Shown here: one piece after another, positions 1,627-51,182 of the stretch | Layout of the letters: each line of letters starts with the position of its first letter | How positions within the stretch are numbered: position 1 is the first letter of the stretch | NCBI GenBank assembly: GCA_002633005.1 | Contig: NMRA01000289.1 | Span: 158,792 to 222,791, forward strand | Direction of reading: 5' to 3' | From: Phoronis australis | Taxonomy: Eukaryota > Animalia > Phoronida | DNA: 64,000 nucleotides | Notes under the pieces: model-generated | Database searches by the model: none | Told to the model about the DNA's origin: nothing | What the model saw: only the letters and a program-made list of their open reading frames with translations | Position numbers and translations under genes: made by a program

Positions 1627-3609
1627 TTAAAGGGCTCGCGAAATCGAGGCTTTTAATCTATCACCACTAGTACACGCACGCCCTCTAGTTATTGTAGATT
1701 TTCCGAATAGCCCCATTTGTATCGTGTATTCATAATCGCTGAGCTTGCCTATGCCAGTGAAAACATCCTTAGCTTCGTTTATAACCTGCTTAGTGGTTTT
1801 GACTCTTATAGTGTTTTTCACTTTCACTTGTGCTTCGGTGTCATGAATTTCGCTAACATCGTAGTCACCCTGGCAATCGTTGCATTTGCGGGGCTGGTGG
1901 CACATCAGCTTCACTATTTGCATTCCTTTGCAAAATTTGAGGCAGAACAGATTACTGCCAAAGTCGGACACAAAAAATTCAACATGTCGACCAATGACAT
2001 TGTTATGATAGACTTTGTCTATACGGACCTTCCCGTGGTTGGTGAATCTTTTTGCCGCCATATCCCGTGAGTTTCATGGATGACCTCTGAAGCATCTGTT
2101 TAGCTTTGTCGCCGAATATTCTCTTACACGTTGCGATGTTGAGCAGGTTAACTTGAGCGCCCGTGTCGACTTTGCCTTTCAATTTTATCTGGCCGCCTGG
2201 TACATCCAAACGTACAACGGCAAACTGCTTGTCCGGACCAATTTCATCGTTGAAAAGGACTTCTCCTTGCGGGCTTGACCTGTCCGTGCCTACCTCGGAA
2301 ACCTCATAATCTGAGTATGTGAACTCATCCTCAGAAGAAGACGCTACAACAGTCTCGTGAAGCTTTTTCTTACTTCTTTTCTGGGACCTTTTTGTTTCAC
2401 TCGTGGTGGACTTGCACAGTTGCGAGAAGTGTCCTTTACGTTTGCAGTTTCTGCACTCTGCATTATAAGCGGGGCATCTACGAGGGGGGTGTGCTCTTCC
2501 ACATCTCTGACATGTTTTCTGTTTGTCAGTTTTTAGTTTTTGCATCTCATCTGCAAGTCGGTCGTCATTCTGGGCGTCATCTAAGAGGTGTTCCTTCTTT
2601 AGTTTTTCAACTTCCTTCAGGTGGCGCGCGGCAGCTTCTTCGCTTCTTGCCGTATTCAGTATGTCGCCTGTTGTGGCAGTCTTGGGTAAGGCATACACCT
2701 TTTTGAGCGTTTTTGTGTCGTTCAGGCCATATTTCAACGCTTCAGCTTCGATGATTTTTTCGACATTACTTTCATACTCGCATTCGTGTAAGATATCACG
2801 AATTCGATCGTAGAACATGTCTACAGACTCATCGTTCTTTTGTTTAATAAATTTTATTTTCATCCTGGATGCATTCCAGGAACCCTCATGGCCATCTTTT
2901 TTGCACAGATGCCATCAAAGAATGTCCACAACGAGTCAAGTTTTTCTGATTCACCGGACGGAAACGGGTGGTTTGCGTGTTTGACGCATGCGTCGGGTCC
3001 CATTTACACGAGGACTTTGTCCACTTGATGCTTTTCCGCCAGTCCTTCATAGCAGTTCAATATCGTATTAGTAAGGGTTTTGAATCGTACATAATCATGG
3101 TATAGTTTCTTGCTGGTGAAATCTAATTGTTTTGGCATCTCCACACCGTGTAGGCGTGCCTTAGCAGAGGCCTCAATTTCATCCCTTGTAGCCATGTTAA
3201 ATGTCACTGTGTTTCGAATTATACAACAGTTCGCGTGCTAATATTCCCGTGCAGATGTATTACTATCGCGCGTGACTCATACCAGCAAGAGTGGAAAATG
3301 GTTTTTAGCGTGATTTTCAACGTCCAGTTTTACGAATAAAAACCCGGCTCTAATGACAGTCTGATAGTTTATTGTTTTATCAAAAATTTAATACTTGTCG
3401 CTCCGACGTCGAGGTCACCATGTATAGTGTTCTGTTATACCAATAAAGACATATATCCAGTATATTAATACGTTTATTATGGAGAGCACAAATACACTAC
3501 TTATCAGATCGAGCTGTAGCCATTAGAGAAAGTAGATCAAGTTCAATGTGGCTTCCAAATAACAACATTACTTAACTAACACATGACAACTGTAACACGC
3601 ACGTTTACA
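1627..3609 (-). mobile_element. Ty3/Gypsy LTR retrotransposon, 5' part (LTR, PBS, gag, protease); degenerate and 3'-truncated
   Basis: Minus ORFs 3004-3207 and 2003-2863 have two CCHC-type knuckles (CQRCGRAHPPRRC, CRNCKRKGHFSQLC) and the aspartic protease motif VDTGAQVN. The continuation 1627-2061 (DVFTGIGKL) is frameshifted. LTR 3421-3609 reads TGTA...TACA with AATAAA on the minus strand. Confidence 0.9.
3403..3420 (-). other. Primer-binding site (tRNA-Trp-like) of the Gypsy element
   Basis: Minus strand reads TGGTGACCTCGACGTCGG directly after the LTR end (..TACA); close to the tRNA-Trp PBS TGGTGACCCCGACGT. Confidence 0.75.
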
Positions 3610-6029
3610 CAAAACGAAATGTTGTCAGTTCGACAGCTAAGTTGTTTGATCCTCTAGGGCTTGTAAACCCAGTGGCTGTTCGTGCCAAACTATTCATTCA
3701 AAAACTGTGGGCTGACAAGTGTGAGTGGGATGAACCCCTGTCCAGTACATTGCATAACGAGTGGTCTGACATTGCTGGAGATCTTCAGAAGTGTTCTCAG
3801 ATATCTCTTCCCAGGGAATATTTTCCTAGTACTGATTGTGTTACTAATGTCAATGTGCATGTCTTCTGTGATGCTTGTGTCAAAGCATATGGTGCTGTAG
3901 TCTATCTACAATGTTTTGATCAGGCAACATTAATTCAGTATGTCAAAGTGTAGAGCATCACCCCTCAAGTGTAAGCGTTCATTACCACAGTTGGAGCTAC
4001 TAGCAGCTTTAATTGGCTCACGCCTACTTCAGTATACTATGTCCTCATTAGCAGATGTCATCTCAGTGGACAGTGTATTTCTTTGGTAAAACAGCCAGAT
4101 TACATTACACTGGCTACAGTCTAAGAAAAAACTGCCTGTATTTGTTCAAAACCGTGTAACTGAAATTCATGCCCTGACAACTCGTGCCAAATGGATGTAC
4201 TGTCCAACGGATAGTAACCCTGCCGATCTTTTAACCAGGGGCATTGTTTTTGAAACTTGGAACGGCTCCGACTGGCTTCCCAAGCAACAATGGCCACCCC
4301 AATCACTACATTTGGACACTAGCCCAGATGTTCTGGTCCTACCAGTAATAAATGACCCGCGTAGCAAGGCAACACCCCTCAGCCAAAATTCAACCTGGTG
4401 TCAGCCAAATCATGGACATCAACAGGTTCTCTACCCTTCGTCGATTGCGTCGTGTCACCGCATGGGTAAACAGGTTTGTCGGCCGGTGCAAAGACCCAAC
4501 CTCAGCCGTTTCCGAGACTCTAACCGCGCAAGAGCTCAATTCTGCGAAACGCTTGTGGATTTCGGCTCCACAACATGAAATCTACCACATAAACATCAAA
4601 GACGTCATACAGGCCAAAAACAAAACTACACCTGTCAAACAATTGAAGTTGTTTCTTCAAGATGGCCTATTACTCAGTTCAGGAAGAATACACAACGCCA
4701 ACCTACCCGACCACACCAAGTTTCCCATCCTGTTGCCATCCGCCCACAAGTTCACAGAATTAGTCATCAAAGATGCACACGTCAGAACCCTCCACAGTGG
4801 TGTCAACATGACCAGCACATACTTACGTCAGCACTACTGGATTCCAAGAATACGCCAACGCGTAAAGGCTGTCATCCGGCTGTGTGTACCATGTCGCAGA
4901 GTGACTGGTCAACAGTATCATCAACCAGCCGCGCCCCACTCCCAGCTGACAGCGTGCGAGATGCACAACCCTTTGAGATAACAGGTGTCGATTACACTGG
5001 CCATCTGTTCGACAAGAACCCTTCTGACAGCAACAACACAGCCTATGTATGTTTGTTTACGTGTGCAATTACTCGAGCGATACATCTGGAGTTGGTCTCT
5101 GACTTAACTGTCACATCATTTATTCAAGCCTTTCGTCGCTTTGCCAGCCGTCTCTCCTTACCACGAGTTATGATTTCTGACAATGCCACAAATTTTGTTG
5201 GTGCTCCAGCAGACGTCAATGAATTGATCAAATCTTCTCAGATTCAAGATTTCCTCGCAGATCAACACGTTACATGGAAATTCAATCCACGCCGCGCTCC
5301 ATGGTTCGGTGGTTTTTGGGAACGTCTCGTTGGAATTACCAAGACCTGCTTAAAAAAAGGTCCTCCGTCGTTCACAGGTGCCATTTGATGAACTTCGTAC
5401 GATTCTCACTGAATGTGAATGTATCCTAAATGACCGCCGCCTCACATTTGTATCCGGCTCTGACGATGAACCTGAACCGCCAGCTCACATATTATACGGA
5501 CGTAGACTCTCAGGCTTTCCCAGCCTTCTGCAACATTCAAAATGACGAACTCATTGACCCCAATTTCGACGCGACTACTGTACAATTGCAGTATACAAGG
5601 CGATCTGCTCTAATCAGTCATTTCTTTCGCCGTTGGCAACACGAATATTTAACTGCACTTCGTGAAAGACAACAACTCGTAACCCAACGTAACCATACAT
5701 GTACTTTACCCATCAACATCGGCAACGTTGTTTTGGTTCACGACGACAAGCCATGTGTCTTATGGAAAATGACTACAGTGGAGCGACTCAATTACGGGCA
5801 TGATGGATTCATTCGCTCTGCTGACATTCGTTCTCAGTCTGGCAGAACCAATCGTCCTGTGACTAGGCTCTACCCGCTCGAAACAAGTGTAGACTCCGTT
5901 TCGAATCCGCCACCTACCAACACTACAAATACCCCATCTAATTCGGCCTTACCATCGCATCCTCCAGGACCACAAAGACGGGCAGCTCTCCAAGTTCGTC
6001 ACAGTATCCGACGTTGGACCTCTGATTGA
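3609..6029 (+). pseudogene. BEL/Pao retrotransposon pol remnant (RNase H, integrase), multiple frameshifts
   Basis: Motifs TKRNVVSSTAKLFDPLG, HVFCDAC.KAYGAV, YCPTDSNPADLLTRG, H-x4-H..CxxC (AHVRTLHSG..CVPC), GVDYTG, SDNATNF, APWFGGFWERLVG and RPVTRLYPLE are typical of Pao elements. Confidence 0.93.
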
Positions 6030-10518: not shown

Positions 10519-11287
10519 CGGCCCAGCAGGCTGGTGCCGTACTGAGGGCCGGGGGCAAATGCACTATGTTATGATATGATAAACTGTTGTGCAGAAAAAT
10601 AGGCCAAATATCTACGAAATCTTAGACAGTGGCGGATCTACNAATTAATAGACGTATTCTATTGTTAAAGTATTCGTGTGTTGTTTTACTTATTACCACG
10701 TGCGCGCCATTTATCGGCAACAACACGCATTGATATACCACAAAGGAACAGAAACGTTCAAACGTGTACACGCATGCATGTCAATCCACCAATCCACAAT
10801 CGAAGAGGACACTGGATGAACAACATATTTGCATATTTGACGATCAGTTTCAATTCAAAATTTGAAAATGCCTACAGTTCTACCATGTTATAATTGCAAT
10901 TAAACCAAAATAGACGAATATCAAATCTCAATTTTCTGCTGTTTCTTGGCCGAGTTTAAGGCGTTCACACCGCACTACTTTTTGGGAGCTCTCTCACTGA
11001 TCTATACAAAACGTGTAGCTTACTTAAAGGCGAAGGCAACCTTTTTCCATGTCATTTTGAGCTAAAATAAGGTTGGTTGGTTATCCTAGACATATTTTCC
11101 ACTTAATTACAGCTTTTCGTAATTTTTTATTCATCCGCTACTGCGGAAGTGACGTTTTAGGAGGCAAGCATTTCGCGCCAATTTCTTTTCATATAGTCTG
11201 ACGGTAAGAGCTGCCGAGTCAGTCATTGTTCTACCTCGGTTGTGTTAAGTTCTGTCGTCGTTTGCTTTCATTTACTAGTCAGTCAAC

Positions 11288-11815
11288 ATGCCACACTGTT
11301 GCTGCGTACCGGAATGTACTAGTTATCGGCTCACGCGCGCTTTGGGAGTACCTTTGCATCGCTTTCCGATGGATGGCACACTTCGCCGTACTTGGCTCGT
11401 TCATGTGAAGAACGCAGCGTTACCCGTCCACGGAACGTACAAAGCAGTGGAGAATTACCGTGTGTGTGGCAAGCACTTTCTGCCCTCCGGTTACGAAAGG
11501 GATTTGTACGCTGAACTGATGAAGGTCCCTGCGAAACAACGCCTGAAGAAGGATGACATTCCGTCTGTGTTGATTCCCGGCAGTGCCCCGTCACCACCCC
11601 CGAGAAGTGCGTTTTTGAGGCGAGAAGCTTTGCGAGCTGTGGCCAGGACAGTGACTGGAGCCAGTGGAGGCACTTCATCTACTGTCACCCTTGCCTCCGA
11701 ACGTACCCCAGAGCGTGCAATTCCTGGAACCAGTTGTGATTCGCCCTGTGCTGTTTTCTCCAGCCCAGAGCCTCTAAGCAGCCCTGCAGCAATATTGAGT
11801 ATTGGGAGTACGTGA
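11288..11815 (+). CDS. THAP zinc-finger domain ORF (N-terminus of Kolobok transposase, truncated)
   Basis: MPHCCCVPEC..LHRFP..W..VCGKHF..LKKDDIPS matches the THAP C2CH consensus. An out-of-frame remnant DKFIV..LFRRCQVCG..G.QVTI*WEC follows at about 11889-12010. Confidence 0.8.
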   Translation: MPHCCCVPECTSYRLTRALGVPLHRFPMDGTLRRTWLVHVKNAALPVHGTYKAVENYRVCGKHFLPSGYERDLYAELMKVPAKQRLKKDDIPSVLIPGSAPSPPPRSAFLRREALRAVARTVTGASGGTSSTVTLASERTPERAIPGTSCDSPCAVFSSPEPLSSPAAILSIGST

Positions 11816-19379: not shown

Positions 19380-21539
19380 TTTGACTCACATCAGCATCTT
19401 TTCATGGGTTACCTCTGGAAACATTTCAATTGAATTATAAAACCTAATAATTAAACCACACTTTGGCCAAATCATAGAAAGAAATTTATAAATACCAGCG
19501 CAACTACATAGATTTTCATGTTCAACGTTTCGGTTTAATCGCTAAAGCATTATCAAGACAATCAACCAACATACACTCAATAGTGAAAAACACTATTATA
19601 AGCTAACTGAAGAAACAATGAGTATACTCAAACATAGCCAGCCAGCTAGCTGTATGAAGACTATCGTCAAAATATATATTTAGTATACAGATTTGTACCA
19701 AGGCTAACTCAAACACAGCAAACTACCATAGATTCAAGGCAACAGAGCTCTGCTGCTTACAGAACGAATGAACAGCTTTTTTATCCTGAATGACCAAAGA
19801 CTCATATAGAGCTTATCTCTGTTATGACTTATGTCTACTGAATTGGCAACATGCTGATGAAAATGAAAATCAGACAATGCCTGAAAACACTGCTAAAGTG
19901 CTACCAAGGAGTGTACTAGTACAGGAGAGTTCACTCCGCCATTTTACAATTCGCCGCAATGGTTACCGGTCGAAACACTAGCGCCCCAAGCGGTGAATAA
20001 TCAACACTTAGGAGCACAGTGCGAACAATGTAAACACTGATAAATTCATACTTTAATGACATTCAACGGGCAATAAAATTACTGTGTGATTGAAAATGGT
20101 TAGAATACATAAACTAACATCCACTTACAATAGAATGAGAAAAAAATGTGTATTTTAATCAATATTAAAGTGTATTTGTTTTTATTCTCTTGAAGCTCCC
20201 TTCAAAATCCATCATTGTTTTGTTTAATGTTTGAGTTCTTAACATGGCAGTTATCGTTCCTTATAACAGTTCATACCTCCATGGACTACATAATTTGAAT
20301 GATTGCTCCTGGGGGTTCAGAGGTGAATTCCCCCCAGGTGCCAGCTAAGGGGGTACCAGGCAAAAACCAGGTGGGCGCCAAATGGGTGTTGACCCCCTCC
20401 CAGGGGGGTTACATGGGAGGATTGCTAAACAGGTAAAAACCAATGGGTATGTATGCCACATGGGTGTTGAGCCCCTCCCATCGTCACACATTTTGGATGC
20501 TCCCCTGACCATTGACAAACATGTTGCTCCCAGCTCACTGCTGGTTTCATCTCCACCCATGTTCCCTATTCAATGCACCAGGCTACTAGCAATGCAGACA
20601 ATTGTTTTGTGCAGTGGGTGTAACACAAGTGAGAAGAAGAAAGCAAGGCAATTCATCATTACCACAAAATTGTAATACAATTTTAGAGCATTCCATTATT
20701 TCTTAGACATGCCAGTATAGGGCTCAATCCCACTCTCCCACTCACCAACAGTTACAAGTCACTTGCTAATCTATAGAATAGCTCACAACTTACAAAGTGA
20801 AGTAATATTGAGTATATCATCACTCATAACTAGTCAAAGTTCAAAATGTCATGACAAAAAATTAAGAGGTACTGAACAGCAATCAAAATATTCACTACCC
20901 ACATAGCTTCATACAAAACTGAATTAACTTGAAAAGACTTGGATGATAAAACCAAAATTTTATTTTATATGCCCACTGTTCAATAACAGTAAATATTTCA
21001 GATAAGTTAAAGCCAGACCACAAGATCATATCTGATACCTAGCCACAACTGGAGCTTAAGTTAATCACAGTCTCCAAAAACGTACAAAATAGGCAACACA
21101 TACACCAACCAATACAACAAGAAAATCTGACCAATCTTGTCACTCTCTATTAATTCACTAGTAAAAACAGCACTTTTCGCCACAGAAATGCGTTACAAAT
21201 AAAGCTGAAAACTAATTTACTCACAGAGGTGTTTGTCATAGAGAAGCCAAATGATATGGATAGCTTGGGTTTAACAAAATTTCAGCCCACCATTCAGACC
21301 CTGAATGATCCATCAGTTTCACTTTGGCTCTCTCCAAATCACAGGCTAACCATACATAAAATGCTTCAGTCTGATCAACCTTAGTAAAATACGAAAACCA
21401 GATTTTGACTAATTGTCCTTTCTTCACGTGATGTTCCAGTACTTGCTTTGAGAGACGATAATCAGAAATGCAAAAAAGCCTATTCCAGAGCTGTAATATA
21501 ATTTCCGGAGAACTTTTTGACCCTGACATCTTCATTTTT

Positions 21540-24088
21540 GGTAGATTCGGGACATCTAATATTTTTCGTGCACTGCAGTCAATACCAGCTTGTTCTTCAT
21601 TCATGAACATGGACTCCTCGAAGTGATGAGAGCATAACCTGCAGTTCTTGGACAAATAGGCAGCACCTCTATTCATAAGGTCAGCTCCCAGCACTTGCAC
21701 CTGAACAGAAGTCAATGACTGAAAGACTCAGGAACAAATCTCATACTCACAGTTCACAGAAAACTGGTAGCCTACACTAAAGTACACTACACAACAGAAT
21801 TCCTGTCGTAATGTGATTGTGAGAGACAAAAGCGTTTTGGTGTCAAATGAAAAAACTCGGGACTCAAATGTCGATCCACGGATATTTTAACAGGGCCGCG
21901 CCCCCGCATCATTGATGCATAGAATTAAAAGGGAACTGTATTTTATTCTGAATAAATTCTGGATAGTTTTCTATGAATTGTTGATTAATTTCACAAATAA
22001 TTCAACACCAAAAATTAAACTTATGTTCTCTAACGAAGCTCAAAAAATTACCGGCTTGGAGCGCTGCTTAGTCTCGTGACGTATTTGGCGGGGGCAAAGT
22101 CACTGTCCTGTGTTAGCGTGCAATCAAGTAGCGTTTTTTATATTGTCGGAATAAGAAATTTTAGTGTGAAATTTCGGGTCACAAGGGATACCTGTTTGAG
22201 CCAAGGCAACACAAAGTGATACCTAGTCATCGTCATCGTCAGACGAAAATTTGCCGGTGTAACTGGTGTCAGTGACTGTGCCGAGGGCAATGTGGACTCT
22301 AGCCATCCAGTCAGCCAGTTGTCAGCCAATACTCCGGCAGCTCTGTAAACTTGAAGGGTTGGTAAGTTACCGACTGTACCTGTATGAAGACTATCGTACC
22401 ACTATGTGTTGAGCTCCGTTAACCCCGAAATTTCAGACAGCCGTTGACTACCCGGGTATAGTTGACTCAGTTATGCTCGTCACCTCGTCGTAAAACTTAG
22501 GCTACATCAACATATAAAGCTAACGGACCGGCGGGGGCGCATGCAAAATCTGATATAGTCACCCGACACTTCCATTGTTCGTTGCAGCCGTTTAAGTTGA
22601 AAACAATCAAATAAAAGTCCTTTGGTAGCATAATTTGCCGCCTTTTCAACAAAGAAGTGTGTTGTCCGTTTCAAGAACAGTACGCTCGTGACTGACACGG
22701 CGCACGCGCCATTTCATAAAAATTTGAGACGTCTTTCGGGACATCATAACAGCTTCGCAGCACCAAGGTTGTTCTAAAATTCGGTTTGCTGGTGTAAAAA
22801 TACTAAAAACTTGAAACAAAATGAAACAAGCTCCGATAATTTGTTATAACAACTACGCAATCTAGGTACCGTCAGCGACGAACTCATGATAAAAGAATCA
22901 GGGGGAAAAGAAAGTGGTAAAGGTCAGGTGATGTAATCGCAAAAAGCCGACTCAAGAAAACACATCACAGTTTTACTAGCACCAGCCGATGAACGATCGC
23001 TAACATTTCCAACACCGGTAAATACAGAAGTTAGTTTACTCTAGGAACCTGTTTCCTAGGTTTACTCAAGGATGACTTAGTTTTAATGACATTTATTTGA
23101 GTCAGATTTTATTTGCACAGTTTTTACCCATATCGGCTTAAACCTGTAGGCCTATATCTAGCATACACTGAGCTTTGGGCCAAGGCTTGGGTAACCCGGC
23201 GATGGTATGCGATGACCATCTCTTTAGAAGACGCCTTTTTCGAAGAGTTTGAGCGACCAGGTGCCATACAAAAACGCATAGCGAACCTTTTACAGCACTG
23301 TGGCAAACAATAAAAAAATAAAGACGATTGATACAATGACAAATTACGATGTAAACTCTTCAAATATGACATAAGCAATGAATGTGCAAAGCAGCCGATA
23401 CCCCGCCGTTCACGTCACTGACACATCAGCCAATCAGCGATCGCTTTCAGAATTCAGTGTTTTGACCATGAATACGAATTGGCTTTTGTTTGGCACGCAA
23501 GTCAGGCAAATGTGAGTTTTATTTGTATGTTAGAACCGATTAACTGCAACATTATTTTGACTACAGTCCCCTTTTAAGTTTTCAATGGCGCACTGCTTAC
23601 GGTAACTTAATTGGTCCAACTGGCACATTAAAATTATGTTGATTTTTTCACCTTTTCACCGAGACCACAGATTATCTAACTTGACTCATGACAGACTAGT
23701 GGCCCTGTGGCTGTGATTGTGCCATGGCCGTATCACCCCATGGCCATGGGCATGGGTATGTTTTCCTAAAATTATATGCAATCGTACGGGTGACATTTTG
23801 ATTTGGAATTCATGGACTGCAAGTATCCAAAAAGCTGACGATCACATCGTACGTTCATCATAGTCCTTCCGCCTAGCCTACACTGCAAACAGTGGCAACA
23901 GGACTGCGATCGACTTGTCTAACAACCATGAACAGAACACACAAAATGAAAGACAATGTATCACATTATTGAATAACAGATAATCCTTACCTTTATGGAT
24001 CCTTAGGAAACCCAAAAAATGACACGTCTGGGGTTTTCGTGGGCGAATTCATGCAATTCATTGCACTACGAAATGCGTCCTTCCCCAT
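21540..24088 (-). pseudogene. Spliced THAP domain of the P-element transposase (exon 24088-23991, exon from 21700)
   Basis: MGKDAFRSAMNCMN..VSFFGFPKDP*R|CKCW..[frameshift]..LSKNCRLCSHHFEESMF..DVPNLP, with gtaag donor and ttcag acceptor; first Cys lost and a premature stop. Confidence 0.75.
21929..23573. mobile_element. TTAA-flanked non-autonomous TIR element (Kolobok-like) nested in the P-element intron
   Basis: TTAA|AAGGGAACTGTA ... TACAGTCCCCTT|TTAA; internal GYLFEP codons near 22185. Confidence 0.65.
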
Positions 24089-24599: not shown

Positions 24600-24783
24600 T
24601 GAATAGGAGTTCCAACCTGTCTCAACTTTGTCATTCCCGCCATTCTTGTGTTGCGGAAGTGCTAAACTGTTAGTGCTATCTGGCGAGATTACAAGTTCTC
24701 GCACAGCAGCGCCACCTTTGTAGGTCAAAGTGCGACGTCGGAAGATAAGCTACGACGAGTCGAGTGTGTCGGTACGTGTAAGT
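24600..24783. promoter_or_regulatory. Putative bidirectional promoter (RECQL4 / dehalogenase-like gene)
   Basis: CpG-enriched segment outside recognised transposons; E2F-like TTCCCGCC (24634-24641), ETS-like GCGGAAGTG (24653-24661), candidate donors on both strands (plus gtaagt at 24778; minus CAG|gttgga near 24616). Confidence 0.35.
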
Positions 24784-25346
24784 AATATTTTATTCTATAG
24801 AATAAGTGTCACCGGTTACCCACAATCGAGTATCGAGTGCGTTTTCATCTGTTTGCCACAGCGTACAAATTTTTAGTGTACACTGGCTTGCCTAACCGCT
24901 GAACGAAGGCGGCGTCCGAGGTCTTGGTCCACGGCTGCGACTGGCCAAGCGACGGGGCAGAAACGTCAGTTGCATTATGAAAATCTGCATCGTCATTGCA
25001 GTTCACTGATAACAAGTTCATTATTCATTTCTGTTAGTTCCTAATATCGAGACGGTTTATATCTTAAAGATAGCTGCACTCATTCAGCTCCTCTATCTCT
25101 CACGGTAGAGGTCGGGTCACGATCGGGACCTATAAGTACATGTAGGCCATTTTCACGAAAGACGTCGCTCTAGTCGCTTAGCGACACGCAGTGTTGGCTT
25201 ACGTAGTAAATGCATGTAGGCTGATGACTGGTGTACTGCCATCACGTGAATCTTTGCCGGCCGGAGCTGGGTCTCAAGGCGTCTGTAGCATTTTTTACCG
25301 ATTATCAAGATCGGGGTCTAAATTTAATGTCTATCATGAAACAAGA

Positions 25347-28300
25347 AATTTTAAGTATCAGTCCACGGATCCACCGACCACAGTACAGCCAACAAGCGGC
25401 AAGGTGGGGGGTCAACCATTCAGATCCATGTTTAGTCTGATAAATCACATTAGGGATGAGAGAAAATGGGTGAAGTATGACACCACAAAGTTTGGTGGTT
25501 TAGGAGATACAAGGGAAGTGTTCTGGGGGGCAAAATGAGGCAATTTCTTGGTGTGGAATGAGTCATTTTTGACCAAATTTTCTACTCCAGTTTCTGCTTC
25601 AAACAGAATCGTTTCTGAACAATTTTGATATCACATGATAGGTTCATGACCAATGTCAGTAAAAACGGCACCGACACTGCAATATCGGTTACCATGGTAA
25701 CACTGGAACTGTTTCCGTGGAGGTACATTTCCGTCTTGTGAAAAACCAGCAGTAAGCTGTACCCTTATAGCGAAGCTGCCCCCGCGAGAAAACTAAAAAT
25801 AATAACATGGACATGTAGAAGACTCCATGCCCTTGAAATTAATACAATAAAAACTTTGTCAGCCCTTCAGGCAGGCTTGGTAATAGGTGTCTGAATTTCA
25901 CTATTTTCAGACCGCGTATGTGTATTTGTCATGTTAAACCAGTCACTAGTTGTGCGCCGTTTCTACGCATTAATATGCCGTGGTATAATACAACAATTAA
26001 AACAATTGGTTTGCTTAAATGTTTTTAATTAATTTTAAGGACACTAGCATTTCCCAATAAAATATGAAATTATACTAAATTTGTTCATCCAATTCGTCTG
26101 AATACCAAACTAAAGCTTACAATGCGTTAGTTGAATGATGGCTGACCTAAAGTGCGGGTTTGCGAATTTATCTATTTATCTGGCACTGCCAGTCGCATCG
26201 AATGTGGTATTTCTACAAATTGCGGGGAGAAACAACTTTGGAAACTCTAGGGAAATACACAAGGTATAGAGCGAGACATTTGAGCACCTTATAAGAGTAC
26301 GTGGAGCTGATGTGGAGGTGGAACGTGTCCTCCTGAGTAGTCTGTCTCAGTGTCTGCCTCGGAGGCACTGTGTGCAGCAGGAGCTACATAATCTACCGTA
26401 TTAGGTTCACTTGCCCGAATCATCGTTACAACACTCGAGATATATTGGCGTCGCCAAAGACACTTAGAACATTCACTGCACACTAGAGGAGAAATCTGAT
26501 AGAGGTCTGAAAAATTACCAAAGACGTTTAAAGCCAAGGTTCAACGTCCTGCTTCGTGTGAGCTCAGGTAGGAATCACTAAACTCCAGGGTCTGACCCTG
26601 AGGAATATTTTTAGAAGCCCGTCATTCATGCAAAAATACTTTTATTGACACAAAGTGATTGCTTATAGCTTTGGCCTTATTGCTTAATCATATCTTATCC
26701 AAATGTGTTGATGTTTATGCAACTACATGTATACAATGGCATAGAAAATAAGGTTGTCATCATAACTTTTCATAACAACCACCAAATGTGTAACATGACT
26801 TCTGCCCATGAAATACTTTTAGAGACTAGGGAGTATGTTTTGTCTACCAATGATTTTCTGCGATTGTGAAGTTAATTAAACATGCTAAAGCCGTCAAAAA
26901 TATTGGTCCCTTCACTTATTTTAGCTTGGTATTCATATTTTGTGAGCCGAAATGGCCACATTAAATTTAATATGTTTAATTTTTCATTAATACAATTTTA
27001 GGAATCGGGAAAGGCTTATGCTGAAGAAGTGGCTTCTGCTGAAGTTGGAGACTTGCCGATTATTAGTAAAGGTTGGGTATGGAAAATTTCACAACCAGCG
27101 AGAAGATACCCTTCTGGACAACTAAGTGAGGGGGCTAGAGAGAGGCCGAAAAGTCTACTCCCAGAAGATATGTAAAAGAGAATTTGTAGCTTGAGGAACG
27201 AGTTGGGGAAAAAGCATTTGCCAAAGATTACTGGCTTATACCACAACAGGTCCAAAGTAATTTGTTGAGATAGGCCACTCTCAACAAATGTGGGGAAACT
27301 GGGACAGAGGAAGTGGAGTATGCATAGAAAGAGGCAATCTGCGATTGTCAAGGATGTAGCATTGTAAAAATTCAATGGGAGGAAACAGTACAGTGGCTGG
27401 ACCTGTAAATACTCTGGCTGATCTGCTAAATCCAGTGGGGGCATTATTGTATCAGCACAGCTGTGTAGGGAAGTAGGCCTGTGTGTTGTCGCAAGCTTTG
27501 TTTGCACCAGAACTGCTTGTGTGAACAGCACAAGTCTAAAATTTACCTAGTCTAAGACTGAGTTTTTGTCCAGGCACGGATTATGATCCTGGGCCACATG
27601 GTAATGGTACATTGTTCATTTTGTTTAGCCACTGGATTTTTTGGTCTGACAGGATTACTCAGTGTCGCCATCACATTTAGATGATTTCTGACCTCTGTAC
27701 TATTTCTTTTCCTTGAAGATGCGTAATTGATCTGAATTTATGTTTCCGCATTTTATTTACCATTGTAGATTTTTGTTTGTAAATGGGTATATATTACTGA
27801 AATTTGAGACCCTGTTGCAGTTAGGCTGGTTTTGTTAACTTATCTTTCTGCCTGGGTTGTAAACCCATATTCTGTCCAGGAGGTAATAAGTTTTGATTTA
27901 GACCATTTACCTCTATAAACTTTGCTCAGTTTGTTCCTTATCCAGATGGGAAGTGATTTCTGGAATTGTAGCGAATTGACAGTTTGCTATTCCTTGAGAC
28001 CATGCTGTGTGTATAAAATCGCACACTATTAGTCTGGTCTTTAGCAATTGCATATTGCCAGATCTTTCAAAGTTCTGAAATTGCTCAAAAGTGACCTGGA
28101 AGTAATACCTATTTCGTGATGGTAAAATATCTAAATCAAAAGTTGTTTTATGTGATTTTAGGCGAGTTTATGTCCACTTCAAATGATTTTTTGTTGCAGT
28201 ACTGAAAAGTATTGGCACATTAGCTCTGGTGGCTCCTTGTTTTTTTGGCGAATTGACCATTTTATGGTTCCCATGGGTAATTTTGTTACTGGTCTAGTAT

Positions 28301-30398
28301 GTATGTACAACTGTAATCGTAGGGCAATTGTAATGCAAACCATGTTGCAAAAGTATTTTTTCATGACCATTTCATTGTAAAATGCTGCCTAATTGGAACC
28401 GACAAGCCAATTTTTCATTTTGTGGTGGTTAGTTTTGATAAGAACATTGATGTGGTAAATACAGCTACCTCAAGTTTGTGAAGAAGAGATTTCCAGTGTT
28501 GTCAGCGATATTGCGAAATCACTTTTTCGCAGTGAGACTACATCACCTTAAATGTAATTCCCTGACTTTATGAGCTTTGTGTGGTTGACTCTGTCCTGTA
28601 GCAATTAGAGTGTTGAAAAGATCTAGAAGGCAATTTTTTATTAGAGTCATAACATTTGCACTTTTGACTGTACAGTTATCTTTGCATTGTATTACGAAAA
28701 CATATTTTGTAGTACACAAGTCTCTGGTTGGTATTTTATATTTTTTCACAAGGAATATTTTCAACTTAGATGAGTTGTCTGTGAGGTAGGCAATTTTCAA
28801 ATAAGATAATGAATAAAATTGTCAAACATTGTTTTATTTTTTAGATGTGTGATCTTCCAATAAGTGATTACTTTTAAAAAACCTGTGCAGAATTTGATTT
28901 TTACTCTTCATTTGAAGGAGAATAAATCCATAAACCTGCATTGTCTAGAAATTTTACTCAAACTACATATTACAGGGTTGGGGATTGGAATCTTAATACA
29001 ACAGAGTCTGAACCCGTACCATGAGCAATACAACACAATACACGGATATAAAAATTTGGTGTTTAGGTTCCACGGAAAGGATTCGTGTGCGCGGTAATAG
29101 TTACTAAGGTGCGTGGTCATTGTTTGTGGATACTTTGGGATTCCTCTTCTGTGGTCATCCACGGGAAACCTGGTCGCATAGAGAACAATAGATTAGTATC
29201 TTCATTGTTTCCGTTGTTATAATAAAGATATAATGACGAGCACTTATCGGCAACGGTCTCAGTGATGTACGCAAGGTTCTATATCCATGCGACCTGTGTT
29301 GTTACATCCAACAATGACACAACAAAGGAAAACAATGATAGGACCGATGGGCGAAAAACATGCGACGAGTTGCCATGGACAGTGGTGGAGTTTGTCTTGT
29401 CATTCGAATGTTTTTACAGAACTGCAAACCCGGTATTTCGTCAGGAAAATTTCTGCGGTCTTTTGTTTTAAGTCGTGGGAAAAATTGCGGTCATGCAACA
29501 AAACTTATCCTTCATTTGATATTACAATGCATTGCATGAACATTTGATCAACAGAAAATCTGACTTGAATATGTGTGAAGAAATACCCATGAGGAAATTG
29601 CAAAGTAAAACAACTGTAAATCAAAATAACCTACATTTGTCGAGTTCATGTCTAACCCTGTTCACTGTGGAGGACATAATCGGCTTTTTACAAAATGGAG
29701 CCATGTATGGTATTTAGGGGTACTATAGCCCTAAGTGATCAGTAGTAAAACGTTCAAAACATTCAGGAGGAACTAACTTGTTGCAAAATATCGAAAAACA
29801 TGAAGGACAATCGGATTTTACGGTGCTCACGCATCGATCTCAGATGTATGAAAATTTCTCATTTTAGTACATTTGAGGTGCCAAAATATATAACTAATAA
29901 ACTGGCTGACAAAGTTTTTATTTTATGAAATGAAAGTAACATGTTTTGTCAACATTTTGGCTAAGTTTCATTCTCTTAGCAGTGGGGGCAGATTTGGTAC
30001 AGCAGTGTACTGAACACAACCTCAAAATGGCATAACGGGGGGCAGTGTAGTAAAACTACTAAATGAGGGTGATAAATCGGAATCGTGTTTCAAGACATCT
30101 GTGTAACAATCTACAGGCACCACTAAACAATGCCAAGTGAATAATAAATCAATAGCTTTCATTCAAGGAAAAATATGAACAGTTAAAACTGGACAGTTTT
30201 TATACCGTGAAAACATGGCTGCGAAGCCGTAAAATGTGTTTGAGCCTATAACTTTAGAAAAACGCAATATTTTGAGGAAATATTTTACCACTGTTTATAG
30301 ATCCTATAGGACTACCTATGTGCCAAATTTGGTGAAAATCGGCTGACCCCCAGCTTGCCGCTCATGGCTGGTGCTCTCGTGGACTAATACTTAAAATT
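25347..30398. mobile_element. ~5-kb TIR DNA element (Academ-like TAGTCCACG core termini), decayed interior
   Basis: Left AATTTTAAGTATCAGTCCACG..CAGCCA..AGCGGCAAGGTGGGGGGTCA is the reverse complement of right TGACCCCCAGCTTGCCGCT..TGGCTG..CGTGGACTAATACTTAAAATT. Confidence 0.6.
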
Positions 30399-31295
30399 AC
30401 CGTGGCAAAATTCGGCGGAAATAGCGCCGCCACAGGATTCACCGGCTCGTCAACTAGCCCATTGACCGCCTGTCTTATAAGCTGAGAACCCAACGATGGT
30501 GTATTTATTCTTCGACATGTCAATTCAACTACGTCAAAACAAACTTAGGACCCTATTTGACAAGTCTCAAAACTAGTAGTACTGGTATTCAGCATATCAA
30601 CTGAGAAATTTGAGTCCTATTACTTTGCTAAACACTGTGTATCAGTTAGTAGCTGGATCTGTATAGCAAATATGCTTAAAAGGTTTCACAGAAGGTTATG
30701 TCAAATAATCAAAATCGTTTTATAAAACTTATGAACTATACTGAAAGCCAAAACATTCCATGGCAGACTCCTTCTGCAAATTGATTTTAAAAATGCTTTT
30801 GATAGACTATAATGGAATTTCATGTCCGAACGTTCTTTCGGAATTTTAGCAGATGTGTTCCTATGTATATGGCAACAGATGACTACAAGTTTCAGACCAG
30901 TGCAATTATAGCTGTGCTCCTTAGTATCAATTTTATTGTTTACATTTGCCTCTCATTGAGTTTCTTTTATCTTTGTAGTTCTTTGATGGATTTTCATAAA
31001 AATGGCAAATAATTCTGAGACCACATCTTCCCATTTTTGGATAGGTTTAAGGTATTCTGAGCCATCCAATGGACGCCCAAAAAAGAACACCGTTTGCGGT
31101 GCTGTCGCGTGGGCATTTCAACGCTCCGCGTTGCTGTTATACGAGGCATTACATCAGTGTACTGTACAAAAGTGAAAAGAATATCTTAATTTGAAACCAC
31201 ATTTTATTATTGAAACGTTGGACACCACTGAGTCTATTTTTAATGAGTAAAGTTTTCACTCATTGATACGGTTGTACTTCGGGAGCATGTTTTCG

Positions 31296-31766
31296 GTTAT
31301 AGAGAATTTGTTAAATGCACGACACTTTTCATTGTTCACAGTCTTTATTCCGTTACGTTCGTACTTTCGGAACAAAGCTCTACTCAACTGAACATAATTC
31401 CAGTAACTGACCTAGCGACGTAATTAAAAGACACACGATATTTCGAAACATACTTGTTTCATTCTCAAGTGAAGATAAAATGACGCAGTAATGCCACCAC
31501 TGAGTATAAGCTGATGACACACACAGTGAAATAATGGAAAGAATGACTAATGAAGGGGGGTTAAAGGAAAGTCACGCGAACAAGTGTAACGTGTATTTCA
31601 CACCCGCCGTGTCTCACTGTGTTTATCTTCATTTGAGAATGAAACAAGGTCAGTTACTGTATCTATGTTCAGTTGAGAGTAGAGTTTTGTTCCGAAAGTA
31701 CGAACGTAACGGAATAAAGACTGTGAACAATGAAAAGTGTCGTGTATTTAACAAATTCTGTATAAC
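31296..31766. mobile_element. Fold-back MITE with ~140-bp inverted arms
   Basis: 31296-31478 is the reverse complement of 31622-31766, apart from a ~40-bp indel. Confidence 0.8.
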
Positions 31767-32346
31767 TCATTGATACATGTACATGTACTCAATAACTCGT
31801 CTCGGTCAATTGCAAGGGTAAACGGTGTATGCATGTGCTGTACTTACATTAATGCTATTGTGCCTGTGTATTTTTTGTTTGACGAATAAAAGGTCGGCAA
31901 AGTTTTGACTTAGAAAACTATTGTTGGTGAGACATCTTGAGATGAGAGTTTTACATGTATCTCATATCTTATACTCAGGTATCTTATCTCCAGACTCCAA
32001 TCGATTTTGGCTACTGTGTACCTTGACCTCGTTTTTCAATATTTTAGCGAGCCTTTTGAGAGTTCGGCTTAAGAATTTTTGATTCGCGCTATGTCTAGAA
32101 GGAAGGTTTACACTATGTTCATATTTGAAACCTTTCCTTGTATTCAAGGTCACATCGAGAATAATTGAAGGTACATCGCACCACGAAAGTTCGCTTTTAA
32201 AGCAAAACTATTGTCTTTACACAAAGAATTTAAAACGACACAAAATTACCCCCTTTAAAGTGCATGCATCTAGAAGCGGCTAATTTTAAAGTTCGTGCTT
32301 CTGTTCTAGCCTAAATCAAATGTATTCTTGTAATTCTTTTCAGAAA

Positions 32347-33351
32347 ATGGCGAAGTCTGTCGAAAGGTTGGCACACTTGATGAGTCACTTGGCTCGTGCT
32401 GAAACCACTCCTTCCATTAGCATGAAAAGCACATACATTCCTAAACGTCTTGCATCTTCGGAAGCAGAAGCCGTGCTGCAGACTCGAAAATCGATCGGTG
32501 TCCTAGGTTCTAAAATTAGTTACTTGGACACTGGCTATGATACAGACGAACGGGTAGTAATTTTTGTTCACGGCAACCCAACAAGCTCCTATCTTTGGCG
32601 AAACGTCATACCCCATGTCCAGAGCGTCGCGCGATGCATCGCGCCTGATCTCATTGGTATGGGAATGTCGGATAAGGAACCCAACCACGTGTACACATTT
32701 GCAAGTCACTACAAATACTTCTCTGCCTGGATGGATAGTATCAAACTTCCGGAGAAGGTTGTATTTGTCTTGCACGATTGGGGTGGTGGACTAGGATTCC
32801 ATTGGTGCAATCAACACCGAGAAAGAGTAAAAGCGCTTGCGTACACGGAGACGCTTGTTAGGTCCATTCCTAGCTGGGATAACTTTCCTGAAGTGGCTCG
32901 AAATATCTTTCAAGCTATTCGGTCCAGCGCAGGCGAAGATATTGTGCTGAACAAGAACATGTTCGTGGAGAGGCTGCTTCCTGGAGCTATACAGAGAGAA
33001 CTAACTCTGGAAGAGATGGACAACTATCGTCGACCGTTCAAGGAGCCTGGGGAATCGAGACGTCCCACACTTACTTTCCCACGAGAGATTCCGGTAGTCT
33101 CGGATGGACCGCAGTACGTTGTAGATTTAGTAAATGATTATAACAAGTGGCTGAAATCCGATGATTCTATTCCGAAGTTGTTCATCGACGCGGATCCGGG
33201 ATTCTTTAGTCCAGGCATCCGCCGTGAAGTGAAGAGTTGGCCAAACCAACGCATTGTCGTGGTAAAGGGCTTACACTTCGTCCAAGAAGATTCACCCCAC
33301 CAAATTGGACAAGCCGTGGCTAATCTTGTCAAAGAGGTATATCGAATTTAG
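32347..33351 (+). CDS. Renilla-luciferase-like / haloalkane dehalogenase (HLD-II alpha/beta hydrolase), 334 aa, uninterrupted CDS
   Basis: HGNPTSSYLWRN, APDLIGMG.S, nucleophile HDWG, acid YTE, RRPTLTFPREIP and GLHFVQEDSP (catalytic His) are all intact. The acceptor ttcttttcag at 32343 makes ATG 32347 the likely start. Confidence 0.93.
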   Translation: MAKSVERLAHLMSHLARAETTPSISMKSTYIPKRLASSEAEAVLQTRKSIGVLGSKISYLDTGYDTDERVVIFVHGNPTSSYLWRNVIPHVQSVARCIAPDLIGMGMSDKEPNHVYTFASHYKYFSAWMDSIKLPEKVVFVLHDWGGGLGFHWCNQHRERVKALAYTETLVRSIPSWDNFPEVARNIFQAIRSSAGEDIVLNKNMFVERLLPGAIQRELTLEEMDNYRRPFKEPGESRRPTLTFPREIPVVSDGPQYVVDLVNDYNKWLKSDDSIPKLFIDADPGFFSPGIRREVKSWPNQRIVVVKGLHFVQEDSPHQIGQAVANLVKEVYRI

Positions 33352-33939
33352 GAAAAAAGATGAAGTTAACGTTTCTTCTTCATACCTACTGTGATTAATT
33401 TCCGAAGTAAAAACAAATCACGCATGCAGTGAATTTTTGTAGGCCTTAGTTTTTCAACCAAGTGCTTTTCATTAGTTACCAAATGTTTTCTTTACCTTAG
33501 TCAGAACTCGAAAACGACATTTCTAATGCAAATGGAATTACGACCATGATTTTCAGTCTGAGGCAAACGTGCATTGCTTCTAAAGGAAATCGAATATTTT
33601 CCCTTTATGGAAGCTGGATTCTGCAGCTGACTTTTAAAGATCGAGATCTGGTGTCACGCCTTGACAATTTTGTTTTCACTGTTGGTTAGCTCTTGTGCAT
33701 GTCCCCTATGGAGAAGAAGTTGACTTAAACGAAATCGTCAACTGTTTGGCTTGATCAAGCCGTGACAGTTAGACGTTGGCAGCGTTAGGTTTTCATGAAA
33801 ACACGCTCTCATTTGAGACAGAATCAGAAGCTGGATTAATAGTTCGAAACGTGTGTGAGTAGGATACATCCGTTCATTATGACTGCATCTGATACATGTA
33901 GCACTAATGCGACCTTTGATATCAACAACGTATTGACAT

Positions 33940-35595: not shown

Positions 35596-35945
35596 ATGCC
35601 GCTTAATTGCGGGGCATCGTTCCCGCTTGTACGAACAACGAAGATGCGAAAAAAGCGGGTATATCGTTTTTTCGACTTCCTCGGGAGCCCGAAATGCTTA
35701 GGATGTGGCTCGCGGCAGTGAAGAGTAAAAGGTACGCTGTTAATAGCAAGTATGAGGCCGTGAAACATCTGTGTGTCTGTTGCCGGCATTTCGTCGACAG
35801 TGAGTTCTCTGACGAATTCCGGCTTACCTGAGAACTATCCATACGTTCCGTTGCCTGTGCATGTTCACGGCGCCTCCCTAGTATTTCTTGATCAGTGTAT
35901 TACGGTTCGAACTGATATCTTGTGAAACCTGCCATCCGACCCGTG
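35596..35945 (+). pseudogene. THAP-domain remnant of a DNA transposon
   Basis: IVPACTN..GISFFRLPREPE..WLAAVK..VCCRHFVDSEF, frameshifted at the start, stop at 35831. About 220 bp upstream (35375-35430) is an end related to the MITE at 54069-54218. Confidence 0.75.
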
Positions 35946-49282: not shown

Positions 49283-51182
49283 TTAGTGTGATATTTAAAA
49301 TGAGGGTGGCCTCTTCAGTGAAAGCACTGCTTTCCAAGAGGGCCCTCAACAAGAAAAACAGTAATATAATACAATGAAATATACGTAACAAAGATACAAT
49401 TAAAACAGGTAAGGTTGAGAATTAAGACAATAACTAAATGACAAATAATGGTAAAAATTTAACTAAGACAGATGAAATAAATTAAGAGATGACTCTAAAC
49501 AATGAGAGTATTTACGACAATGAAAAATGACATGATTAAGACAGGCAGGGTATAGAAGGTTAAGTAAATTACAGCCACTTTTTAACATTAACTTTAAAGG
49601 TAGTTTTTGAATTGGACCGTTTAATTTCTGGGCTAAAAGAATTCCATATTATAGCAGCTGCATAGATAAAATATCTCTTGCCCGTCTCGGTTTTAATTTT
49701 TTTAGAAGAAAAGTTGCCAGCAACAGAAGAATGTGTAGAATAAACAGCCTGACTGCTATTGAATTTACTGCTGAGATATGCTGGAGCCAAGCCATTGATA
49801 CATCTGTATATAGAACAGGCAGAGAGATATTTATTTCTTTGTCTTACTTTCATAAATCCCAGCTTGGAATACAAGTCGTCAACCCTAGTGTCCCTAATTT
49901 TAGTACCCAGGATAGCCCTGGCGGCTCTATTTTGGATTACTTGGACTTTGTTTACAAGTGTGTCACTAGTGTGCTCCCAAACCGGTAAACAATAATCAAT
50001 ATGAGGCTGAATAATAGAATGGTAAAGGGTTTAAAGAGTACGGAAATTTGCATAGACGTTTAAGTAGACCGATTTTCTTTGATAATTTCTTTGTGATATG
50101 ATCTATGTGCATATTAAATTTAAGATTGGGCTCTTAAGTAAGGCCCAAGTACTTAAACTTGTCAACATTCTCGATGGGAGAACCGTTGATAGAAAGGGAT
50201 AGTTTTTGTTGTTTTAATTTCTGGTGGGTTCCAAACAGCATCGACTTGGTTTTACTAACGTTAAGAATGAGTTTATTTTGAATCAGCCAGTCATGGATAA
50301 TGGCTAGCTCATTGTTGAGAGAAGTTTCGAGATCTTTTACTGATCCAGCTGTGGACGTAATTGCAGTGTCATCAGCGTATAAAACTGGGACACTGTTGTG
50401 GAGGACAGTAGGGAGGTCGTTAACAAAAATAGTGAATAATAAAGGGCCCAAAATGGAACCCTGAGGTACCCCTGTTATTACGGTTGAGTAGTCAGAAAGT
50501 ATACCGCCGTATTTGGTGGCCTGTTTACGGTCGTATGAGTAGTATATAAACCAAAGGAGTTCGTTATCATTAACTCCATATGACTCTAGTTTCTGCAATA
50601 GGATATCATGGTCCACAGTATCAAAGGCTTTCTTAAGGTCAACAAAGACAGCACCAGTTAGCCTCCCCTGATCCATATTATTAAGGATTAACTCAGTAGC
50701 ATGAATGTTTGTAGTAAGAGTGGGATGCAAGGGGCGGAAACCAGACTGTGCTGCCGTGAGAAGGGAATTTTGCTCCAGGAACTGGTGAAGCTGCTTTTGA
50801 ACACACCTTTCAAGAACTTTGGACACTGCAGGGAGGACCGATATTGGTCTTTAATTTTCGCAACTTGACTTTTCACCATCTTTAAAAACAGAAGTAACAA
50901 CTGCCATCTTCCATTCTCTAGGAATTGTGGCCGTATTTAAACTTAAATTCATGATGTTGGTAAGGGGCTCAGCTATTTGTTGAGACGCCAGTTTTAATAG
51001 TTTGGCATCAATGCTATCGATGCCACTGACACTACTAGAGTTCAAAGTTTTTATTTGTTCTCGGACGTAGTCAACTTGAATGTCTTGAAACTTAAATGAT
51101 ATTCCCTCTTGTGTCTTGGGTGGGAGCTCAATAGTTGACATAGTGAAATTCTCAGCAAGTTTTTGGCCGATGCCAGTAAAAA
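49248..51182 (-). mobile_element. Non-LTR retrotransposon (CR1/L2 group) 3' portion with RT, antisense in an intron; 5' end runs into the N gap
   Basis: RT motifs QSGFRP, FVDLKKAFDTVDH, GVPQGSILGPLLF, LYADDT, FKYLG; several stops and frameshifts; 3' stem-loop (GAGGGCCCTCTT..AAGAGGCCACCCTC) and (TAAA)n tail at 49248-49283. Confidence 0.92.

Follow-up and report, generated by a model that had tools for sequence, protein, structure and literature searches.

The 64-kb stretch of the Phoronis australis genome analyzed here (the window) contains one clear cellular gene surrounded by transposon remains, and the haloalkane dehalogenase that this gene encodes is quite probably targeted mainly to peroxisomes, through PEX7 and a nonapeptide at residues 7 to 15. 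A single-exon coding sequence in the ORF list (32347 to 33351, + strand) specifies a 334-amino acid (aa) HLD-II/Renilla-luciferase-like alpha/beta-hydrolase, with positions 32347 to 32391 encoding residues 1 to 15. Translation of positions 32365 to 32391 (+ strand) gives RLAHLMSHL, a peroxisomal targeting signal type 2 (PTS2)-type nonapeptide that is conserved in homologues. It is followed by a Ser/Thr/Pro-rich linker, predicted to be unstructured (residues 16 to 43; 32392 to 32475, + strand), that contains Met26 (MKSTY, 32422) and an R-x-x-S-S stretch (residues 34 to 38). The original prediction had read this same nonapeptide as a PTS2 with a hydrophobic central residue, which agrees with the classic consensus (R/K)(L/V/I)x5(Q/H)(L/A) and with Leu11 at X3. 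It had also called the signal perfect, which goes too far, as the extended consensus, R-(L/V/I/Q)-X-X-(L/V/I/H)-(L/S/G/A)-X-(H/Q)-(L/A) (PMC4585086), is missed at the sixth position (Met12), although that consensus is a compilation of common variants and no strict rule. When the protein's own 49-residue extension was shuffled 100,000 times, the classic pattern arose in 2.1% of cases and the originally used pattern in 1.1%, hence a single occurrence would be unremarkable in a genome scan and proves little. The case for a PTS2 therefore rests on conservation across the family. A search of the ESM Atlas with residues 1 to 45 gave no usable match, and Rfam had 0 matches within the window.

Homologues were collected in three word-index searches (best 120 matches each) as cluster representatives. 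One synthetic protein, five fragments lacking HGNP, and all cluster members but two were dropped, leaving 239 cores; these searches did not reach natural Renilla luciferase (RLuc) or the more remote members from animals and fungi. The animal clade was taken as the smallest clade with all named animal sequences plus the query (66 members, FastTree support 0.99), and the animal status of records outside the named taxa is given by tree position. Motif counts compare 63 animal-clade sequences, the query and two truncated duplicates having been removed, with 173 others; since the homologues are related by descent, the counts are not independent trials. Among the matches listed, a classic PTS2 was present in the N-terminal extension of 20/63 animal-clade sequences (mean 1.01 and maximum 6 in 1000 shuffles), the extended consensus in 8/63 (shuffle mean 0.08), and a looser pattern, picked after viewing the data, in 34/63 (shuffle mean 1.5, maximum 7). 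None of the 173 non-animal homologues among the matches listed carried any PTS2 pattern. N-terminal conservation, originally proposed as a check, was thus found in animals, and the expectation that bacterial dehalogenases lack the motif was borne out for the matches listed.

Two properties that formed no part of the search patterns point the same way. X3 was L, I, V, or M in all 21 classic matches, query included, compared with a background of 21.6%, and proline was found at 0/175 of the five inner motif positions versus 49/692 in the next 20 residues. A bulky hydrophobic X3 and a proline-free helix are described properties of PTS2 (PMC4585086). Among the 35 motif-bearing sequences, position 8 was His in 31 and Gln in 4 (Asterias has Gln here), the flanking positions vary freely, and the sixth position, where the query has Met, is the most variable of the nine. 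The motif ends 40 to 70 residues before HGNP, and the linker between them does not align among homologues; that the nonapeptide is kept while the linker is unalignable indicates that selection acts on the nonapeptide itself. Of the 24 named taxa among the matches listed, 9 had a match to the classic and 15 to the looser pattern. Motif-bearing taxa span octocoral, annelid, hemichordate, echinoderm, amphioxus, and tunicate, with RVSILRSHL in Ptychodera, RVSVMFGHL in Branchiostoma, RLNVLTSHL in Apostichopus, RLLCLTGHL in Clavelina, RLLTIQSHI in Owenia, and RLLKIARHV in Dendronephthya. Work on plant PTS2 has shown that the signal can still function with M as its second residue or with F, I, or V as its last.

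The loose motif was absent from 29 of the 63 animal-clade sequences, 7 of which are too short to have the extension. The other 22, which have an extension and no motif, include both crinoids, two starfish, and an octocoral subclade of six members; one subclade of octocorals differs in its N-terminus. Near misses have R-A, R-F, or H-K, or replace the His with Val, Leu, or Tyr. In the starfish sequences P0129 (Acanthaster) and P0133 (Patiria), the R, the L/I, X3, and the last Leu are kept while Leu or Val replaces the His, a type of change that in thiolase gives a mitochondrial signal. Truncated annotation evidently hides the motif in some species. P0003 and P0025 begin at an internal Met while fuller members of their clusters carry the motif, and the Strongylocentrotus purpuratus model XP_794218 starts at a Met matching an internal Met of a longer, motif-bearing Lytechinus protein. 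Database models P0008, P0139, and P0245/P0279 likewise begin at an internal Met. The fuller cluster members checked for P0143, P0140, P0231, and P0245 had no motif. In the closest relative among the matches listed (P0002), the called ORF is longer by 63 basic, Ser-rich residues ahead of the Met that precedes the motif, which are either an upstream presequence or gene-caller read-through. P0147, placed in the tree between the animal clade and the sequences from bacteria and perhaps from a non-animal eukaryote, has a long Arg-rich extension with no motif. The tunicate-clade protein P0023 and its cluster mate P0201 lack a PTS2 and end in SKL, a possible switch to PTS1; SKL occurred in 1/66 animal-clade sequences, no more than the background of 6/173 in non-animal sequences, and was not counted as evidence.

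The gene is expressed as a spliced mRNA in which Met1 is the first in-frame start and lies upstream of the motif. RNA depth over the coding sequence was about 3 to 32 in sense and 0 in antisense in three runs (X2, X3, and X4, which carry the same species label and come from one study). Because a sequence resembling a splice acceptor ends three bases ahead of the ATG, there was a real risk of a coding exon farther upstream, which would have moved the motif inward. Reads with loose ends at 32344 (7, 4, and 4 in X2, X3, and X4) have tails matching 24748 to 24777 (+ strand), the 3' part of a non-coding exon 1 whose 5' end is unmapped. This is the single exact match in the window, with a chance expectation of 0. 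The joint between exon 1 and the coding sequence rests on these loose ends and is absent from the 15 joints listed, there being 56 others; no other first exon was found among the joints listed. Intron 1 (24778 to 32343, + strand; 7,566 nt, GT..AG) accordingly lies within the 5' UTR, with its main donor (GTAAGT) after 24777 and a second donor (GTACGT) after 24771 that is represented by 4 reads of X4 with loose ends at 32343. The two donors are six bases apart (24771 to 24783), both join the acceptor at 32343, and the protein is unchanged. An in-frame TAG at 24721 to 24723 (+ strand) precedes Met1 by 20 codons in the spliced mRNA, or by 18 when the second donor is used, and rules out an upstream coding exon, and no ATG was found in 24640 to 24777. 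The context of Met1 is strong (A at -3, G at +4). At the level of RNA, on which the start-site evidence rests, translation is hence expected to begin before the motif; a start downstream of it would have told against the original prediction. The 3' UTR (33352 to 33896, + strand) has continuous RNA cover to at least 33600; its end is uncertain, with 5 molecules of one run ending together at 33896. The intron, the RNA reads, and the richness of the window in transposons ruled out bacterial contamination.

Within intron 1, positions 26942 to 29100 had a plus-strand RNA depth of about 70 to 250, far above that of the gene itself, with no plus-strand ORF of at least 110 aa; this RNA is probably a multi-copy or non-coding transcript. 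In each run, 16 to 67 reads joined 28414 to a 23-base piece like that at 31113 to 31135. Just upstream of the acceptor, 32279 to 32323 is a 45-base multi-copy element whose matching reads have loose ends on both sides. A CT..AC intron on the minus strand (21699 to 23988; 12, 1, and 62 reads) suggests a minus-strand transcript that lies head to head with exon 1 and is read away from it, though the reads may stem from other copies. Downstream of that intron, the ORF at 21236 to 21727 is THAP-like by eye and had no Pfam match. THAP domains (PF05485, E about 1e-12) at 11279 to 11815 and 35607 to 35831 probably belong to DNA transposons. Broken retroelement remains with gag- and integrase-like frames by eye occupy 1627 to 6029 and 49569 to 51180 (three frames tested, no Pfam match), and a reverse transcriptase (PF00078) on the minus strand at 50134 to 50850 adjoins a run of N.

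Residues 44 to 331 (32476 to 33339, + strand) form a haloalkane dehalogenase domain that scored 357 bits against NCBIfam NF002938 (cut-off 241). The best PDB match was the reconstructed ancestor AncHLD-RLuc (E 1e-129), with RLuc at E 2e-94 and LinB at E 3e-85. The HLD-II pentad, defined as Asp-His-Glu plus the halide-stabilizing Asn and Trp (bioRxiv 10.1101/2025.09.13.676034), is fully intact (Asn77, Asp144, Trp145, Glu168, and His310). The AlphaFold model (pTM 0.86), confident from about residue 40, has eight core strands and cap helices at 182 to 246, while residues 1 to 33 have pLDDT <50 and residues 21 to 37 are coil; in the prediction, a loose tail at the N-terminus precedes a folded domain. 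At the positions associated with luciferases, where RLuc numbering gives His142, Ser145, and Val146-Val147 (bioRxiv 10.1101/2025.09.13.676034), the query has Tyr166, Thr169, and Leu170-Val171. These residues are correlates rather than proven determinants of luciferase activity; they make the query more likely a dehalogenase, and it is probably not a working luciferase. The original label of luciferase-like dehalogenase is apt as to family, by NF002938 and the PDB matches, while the residues themselves are of the dehalogenase and not the luciferase type. Amphiura P0131 shows the DafA-type His..Val-Val pattern at numbers 34 above those in bioRxiv 10.1101/2025.09.13.676034. Haloalkane hydrolysis was reported for one of eight Amphiura proteins tested (PMC12059646), and so a full pentad does not guarantee activity.

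We propose that the conserved nonapeptide is bound by PEX7 and that the folded enzyme would be carried into peroxisomes. The nonapeptide would fold as a short, two-turn helix with R7, L8, L11, H14, and L15 on one face (helical angles 0, 100, 40, 340, and 80 degrees), dock in the groove of PEX7, and be stabilized there by the co-receptor PEX5; the flexible linker would let the presequence be clipped after import. All of these steps are modeled on established PTS2 biology, in which a helix that presents its key residues on a single face occupies the PEX7 groove with a co-receptor, cargo is imported folded, and the presequence is usually clipped (PMC4585086). By the mechanism of the family, Asp144 would attack the carbon-halogen bond, followed by hydrolysis activated by His310 and Glu168. 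Most speculatively, haloalkyl compounds from the diet or the environment, for example halogenated fatty-acyl chains, would be dehalogenated inside the peroxisome so that oxidation there could complete their breakdown; it is a guess that the substrates are marine haloalkyl compounds or halogenated lipids.

An N-terminal extension of this composition may also be recognized by mitochondria. That the signal is ambiguous, read by PEX7 and by mitochondrial import alike, with the enzyme split between the two organelles, seems rather unlikely to us. The extensions are basic and acid-poor, with no acidic residue in the first 30 positions of 19/35 motif-bearing sequences, a median net charge of +4, and an acidic residue upstream of the motif in only 9/35; residues 1 to 17 of the query have an amphipathic moment of about 0.6. 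On the other hand, at least one acidic residue occurs in 16/35 and two or more in 8/35, and the first 30 residues of the query, which are amphipathic with 4 basic residues, contain Glu6 and Glu19. After the motif, 11/35 sequences, the query among them, have an R-x-x-S-S-like stretch, a pattern of our own devising that we take to resemble a mitochondrial peptidase site; basic Ser/Thr-rich linkers, however, are also normal after PTS2. PTS2 has itself been argued to be part of ambiguous signals (PMC4585086). A purely mitochondrial presequence, whose amphipathic helix merely happens to match PTS2, appears remotely likely at best. Both kinds of signal are amphipathic helices, a single His substitution turns the thiolase PTS2 into a mitochondrial signal (PMC4585086), and the motif-less paralogues P0124, P0146, P0241, and P0244 have Arg-rich, acid-free N-termini. 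Presequences have no consensus (PMC4585086), whereas here the spacing R-hydrophobic-x5-H/Q-hydrophobic is fixed and His is kept as counted above; P0131 and P0132, moreover, have two or three early acidic residues.

It is very unlikely that the motif was inherited but is idle in P. australis, with a cytosolic enzyme, whether through loss of the PTS2 pathway or because translation mostly starts at Met26. Such losses have occurred. PEX7 belongs to a broadly conserved core of peroxins and has been lost in Caenorhabditis elegans, a diatom, and a red alga (PMC8172628), and the PTS2 pathway is absent in Drosophila (PMC12339391). Met26, with A at -3, is 49 residues N-terminal to HGNP and falls near the start of several short database models. 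Against this, Met1 is the first ATG and in a strong context, the five key residues of the motif are intact at only about 62% identity to the nearest relative among the matches listed, and, at a depth of about 11, none of the three RNA runs had variant letters listed within the motif. The cytosolic isoform that had been suggested to start at Met26 thus has its Met and little else in its favor; a downstream Met is present in only 11/35 motif-bearing sequences, which speaks against a conserved Met designed to give such an isoform. Peroxisomal targeting through PEX7 is the reading that we retain for this protein.

In an IQ-TREE phylogeny (64 of the 66 clade members plus 26 of the 173 others), the animal sequences formed one branch (SH-aLRT 98) and the motif was present in all three animal subclades. 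The query grouped with an annelid, tunicates, and others, and no closer placement had starred support. Since the motif marks each of the three subclades and none of the bacterial relatives in the sample, the simplest reading is a single gain followed by many losses. This suggests that the signal was gained once, after transfer from bacteria and before the split of corals and bilaterians, and that paralogues later lost or altered it. Repeated gain would be a conceivable alternative to a single one, as the 15 changes of motif state on the tree are a count that cannot tell gain from loss. A bacterial-type enzyme retargeted to peroxisomes, as originally envisaged, is supported by the pattern of animal conservation and bacterial absence, yet it would be an old feature of the animal family and not special to this gene. 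Among the hypotheses (a to c) on the origin of animal HLDs in PMC5413902, a single gain favors a, in which one transfer preceded the split of cnidarians and bilaterians, over multiple transfers from bacteria. A shared signal absent in bacteria provides an independent character for a single transfer, although spread from animal to animal is also conceivable. Tentatively, and as something possible rather than probable, we suggest that the whole animal HLD/luciferase family stems from one bacterial gene that was given a PTS2 in the coral-bilaterian ancestor, and would then be an old branch of halogen metabolism in peroxisomes that has gone unnoticed. Renilla-type luciferases would have arisen from such a peroxisomal enzyme and shed or changed the signal on co-option, with other paralogues re-addressed by single changes (His8 to Val/Leu in the two starfish; PTS2 loss plus a C-terminal SKL in the one tunicate-clade protein).

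The metazoan HLD/LUC family, including DafA and AfLuc of Amphiura filiformis, DspA of S. purpuratus, and RLuc, falls in the same HLD-II clade and is of bacterial origin (PMC12059646 and PMC5413902). The query shares the full pentad with these proteins and lacks the His, Ser, and Val-Val associated with luciferase activity. In PDB chains of RLuc, 10 residues precede the position that 21 precede in a motif-bearing octocoral homologue, and these N-terminal stretches are unalignable; RLuc presumably has no PTS2 motif there. Bacterial HLD-II enzymes (LinB, DhaA, and DmmA; NF002938, for which the query is above the curated cut-off) share up to 58% core identity with the query but mostly lack the extension, with <55 residues before HGNP in 164/173 and the motif in 0/173 of the matches listed; the query gene also differs from theirs in its spliceosomal 5' UTR intron. 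With PTS2 cargoes, for which peroxisomal thiolase is the prototype, the query has in common a classic nonapeptide near the N-terminus, a hydrophobic X3, freedom from proline, and an unstructured linker, while differing in being a horizontally acquired alpha/beta-hydrolase, not an enzyme of core lipid pathways, and in Met at the sixth position. Firefly luciferase is peroxisomal through a C-terminal PTS1. Its origin from acyl-CoA synthetases (PMC12059646) would, if our proposal is true, make it likewise a luciferase family tracing to a peroxisomal enzyme, by analogy only, as fold, substrate, and signal type are unrelated. The idea that lumisomes are peroxisomes was unsupported, these being vesicles of 0.1 to 0.2 micrometre described with peroxisomes unmentioned in the accessible part of PMC2109472.

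A term search of PMC12059646 found no mention of a targeting signal or localization for metazoan HLD/LUC proteins, and no report of peroxisomal targeting in the haloalkane dehalogenase/luciferase family was found in the literature covered, which leaves out most subscription journals. The conserved PTS2-type signal of the animal family is real and apparently unreported, its novelty being that of a new cargo for a known import pathway and not of a new kind of system. Fewer than 30 PTS2 cargoes are listed in Table 1 of PMC4585086, and with so few a new family across several phyla would be a useful addition. Some database models and recombinant constructs may begin downstream of the signal, which should serve as a warning to those working with these proteins. 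The physiological role of animal haloalkane dehalogenases, the reason they were kept, and whether they entered by one transfer or several are left open in PMC5413902 and PMC12059646. A peroxisomal signal, if true, would be the first cellular address for the animal HLD family and would point to where its substrates lie.
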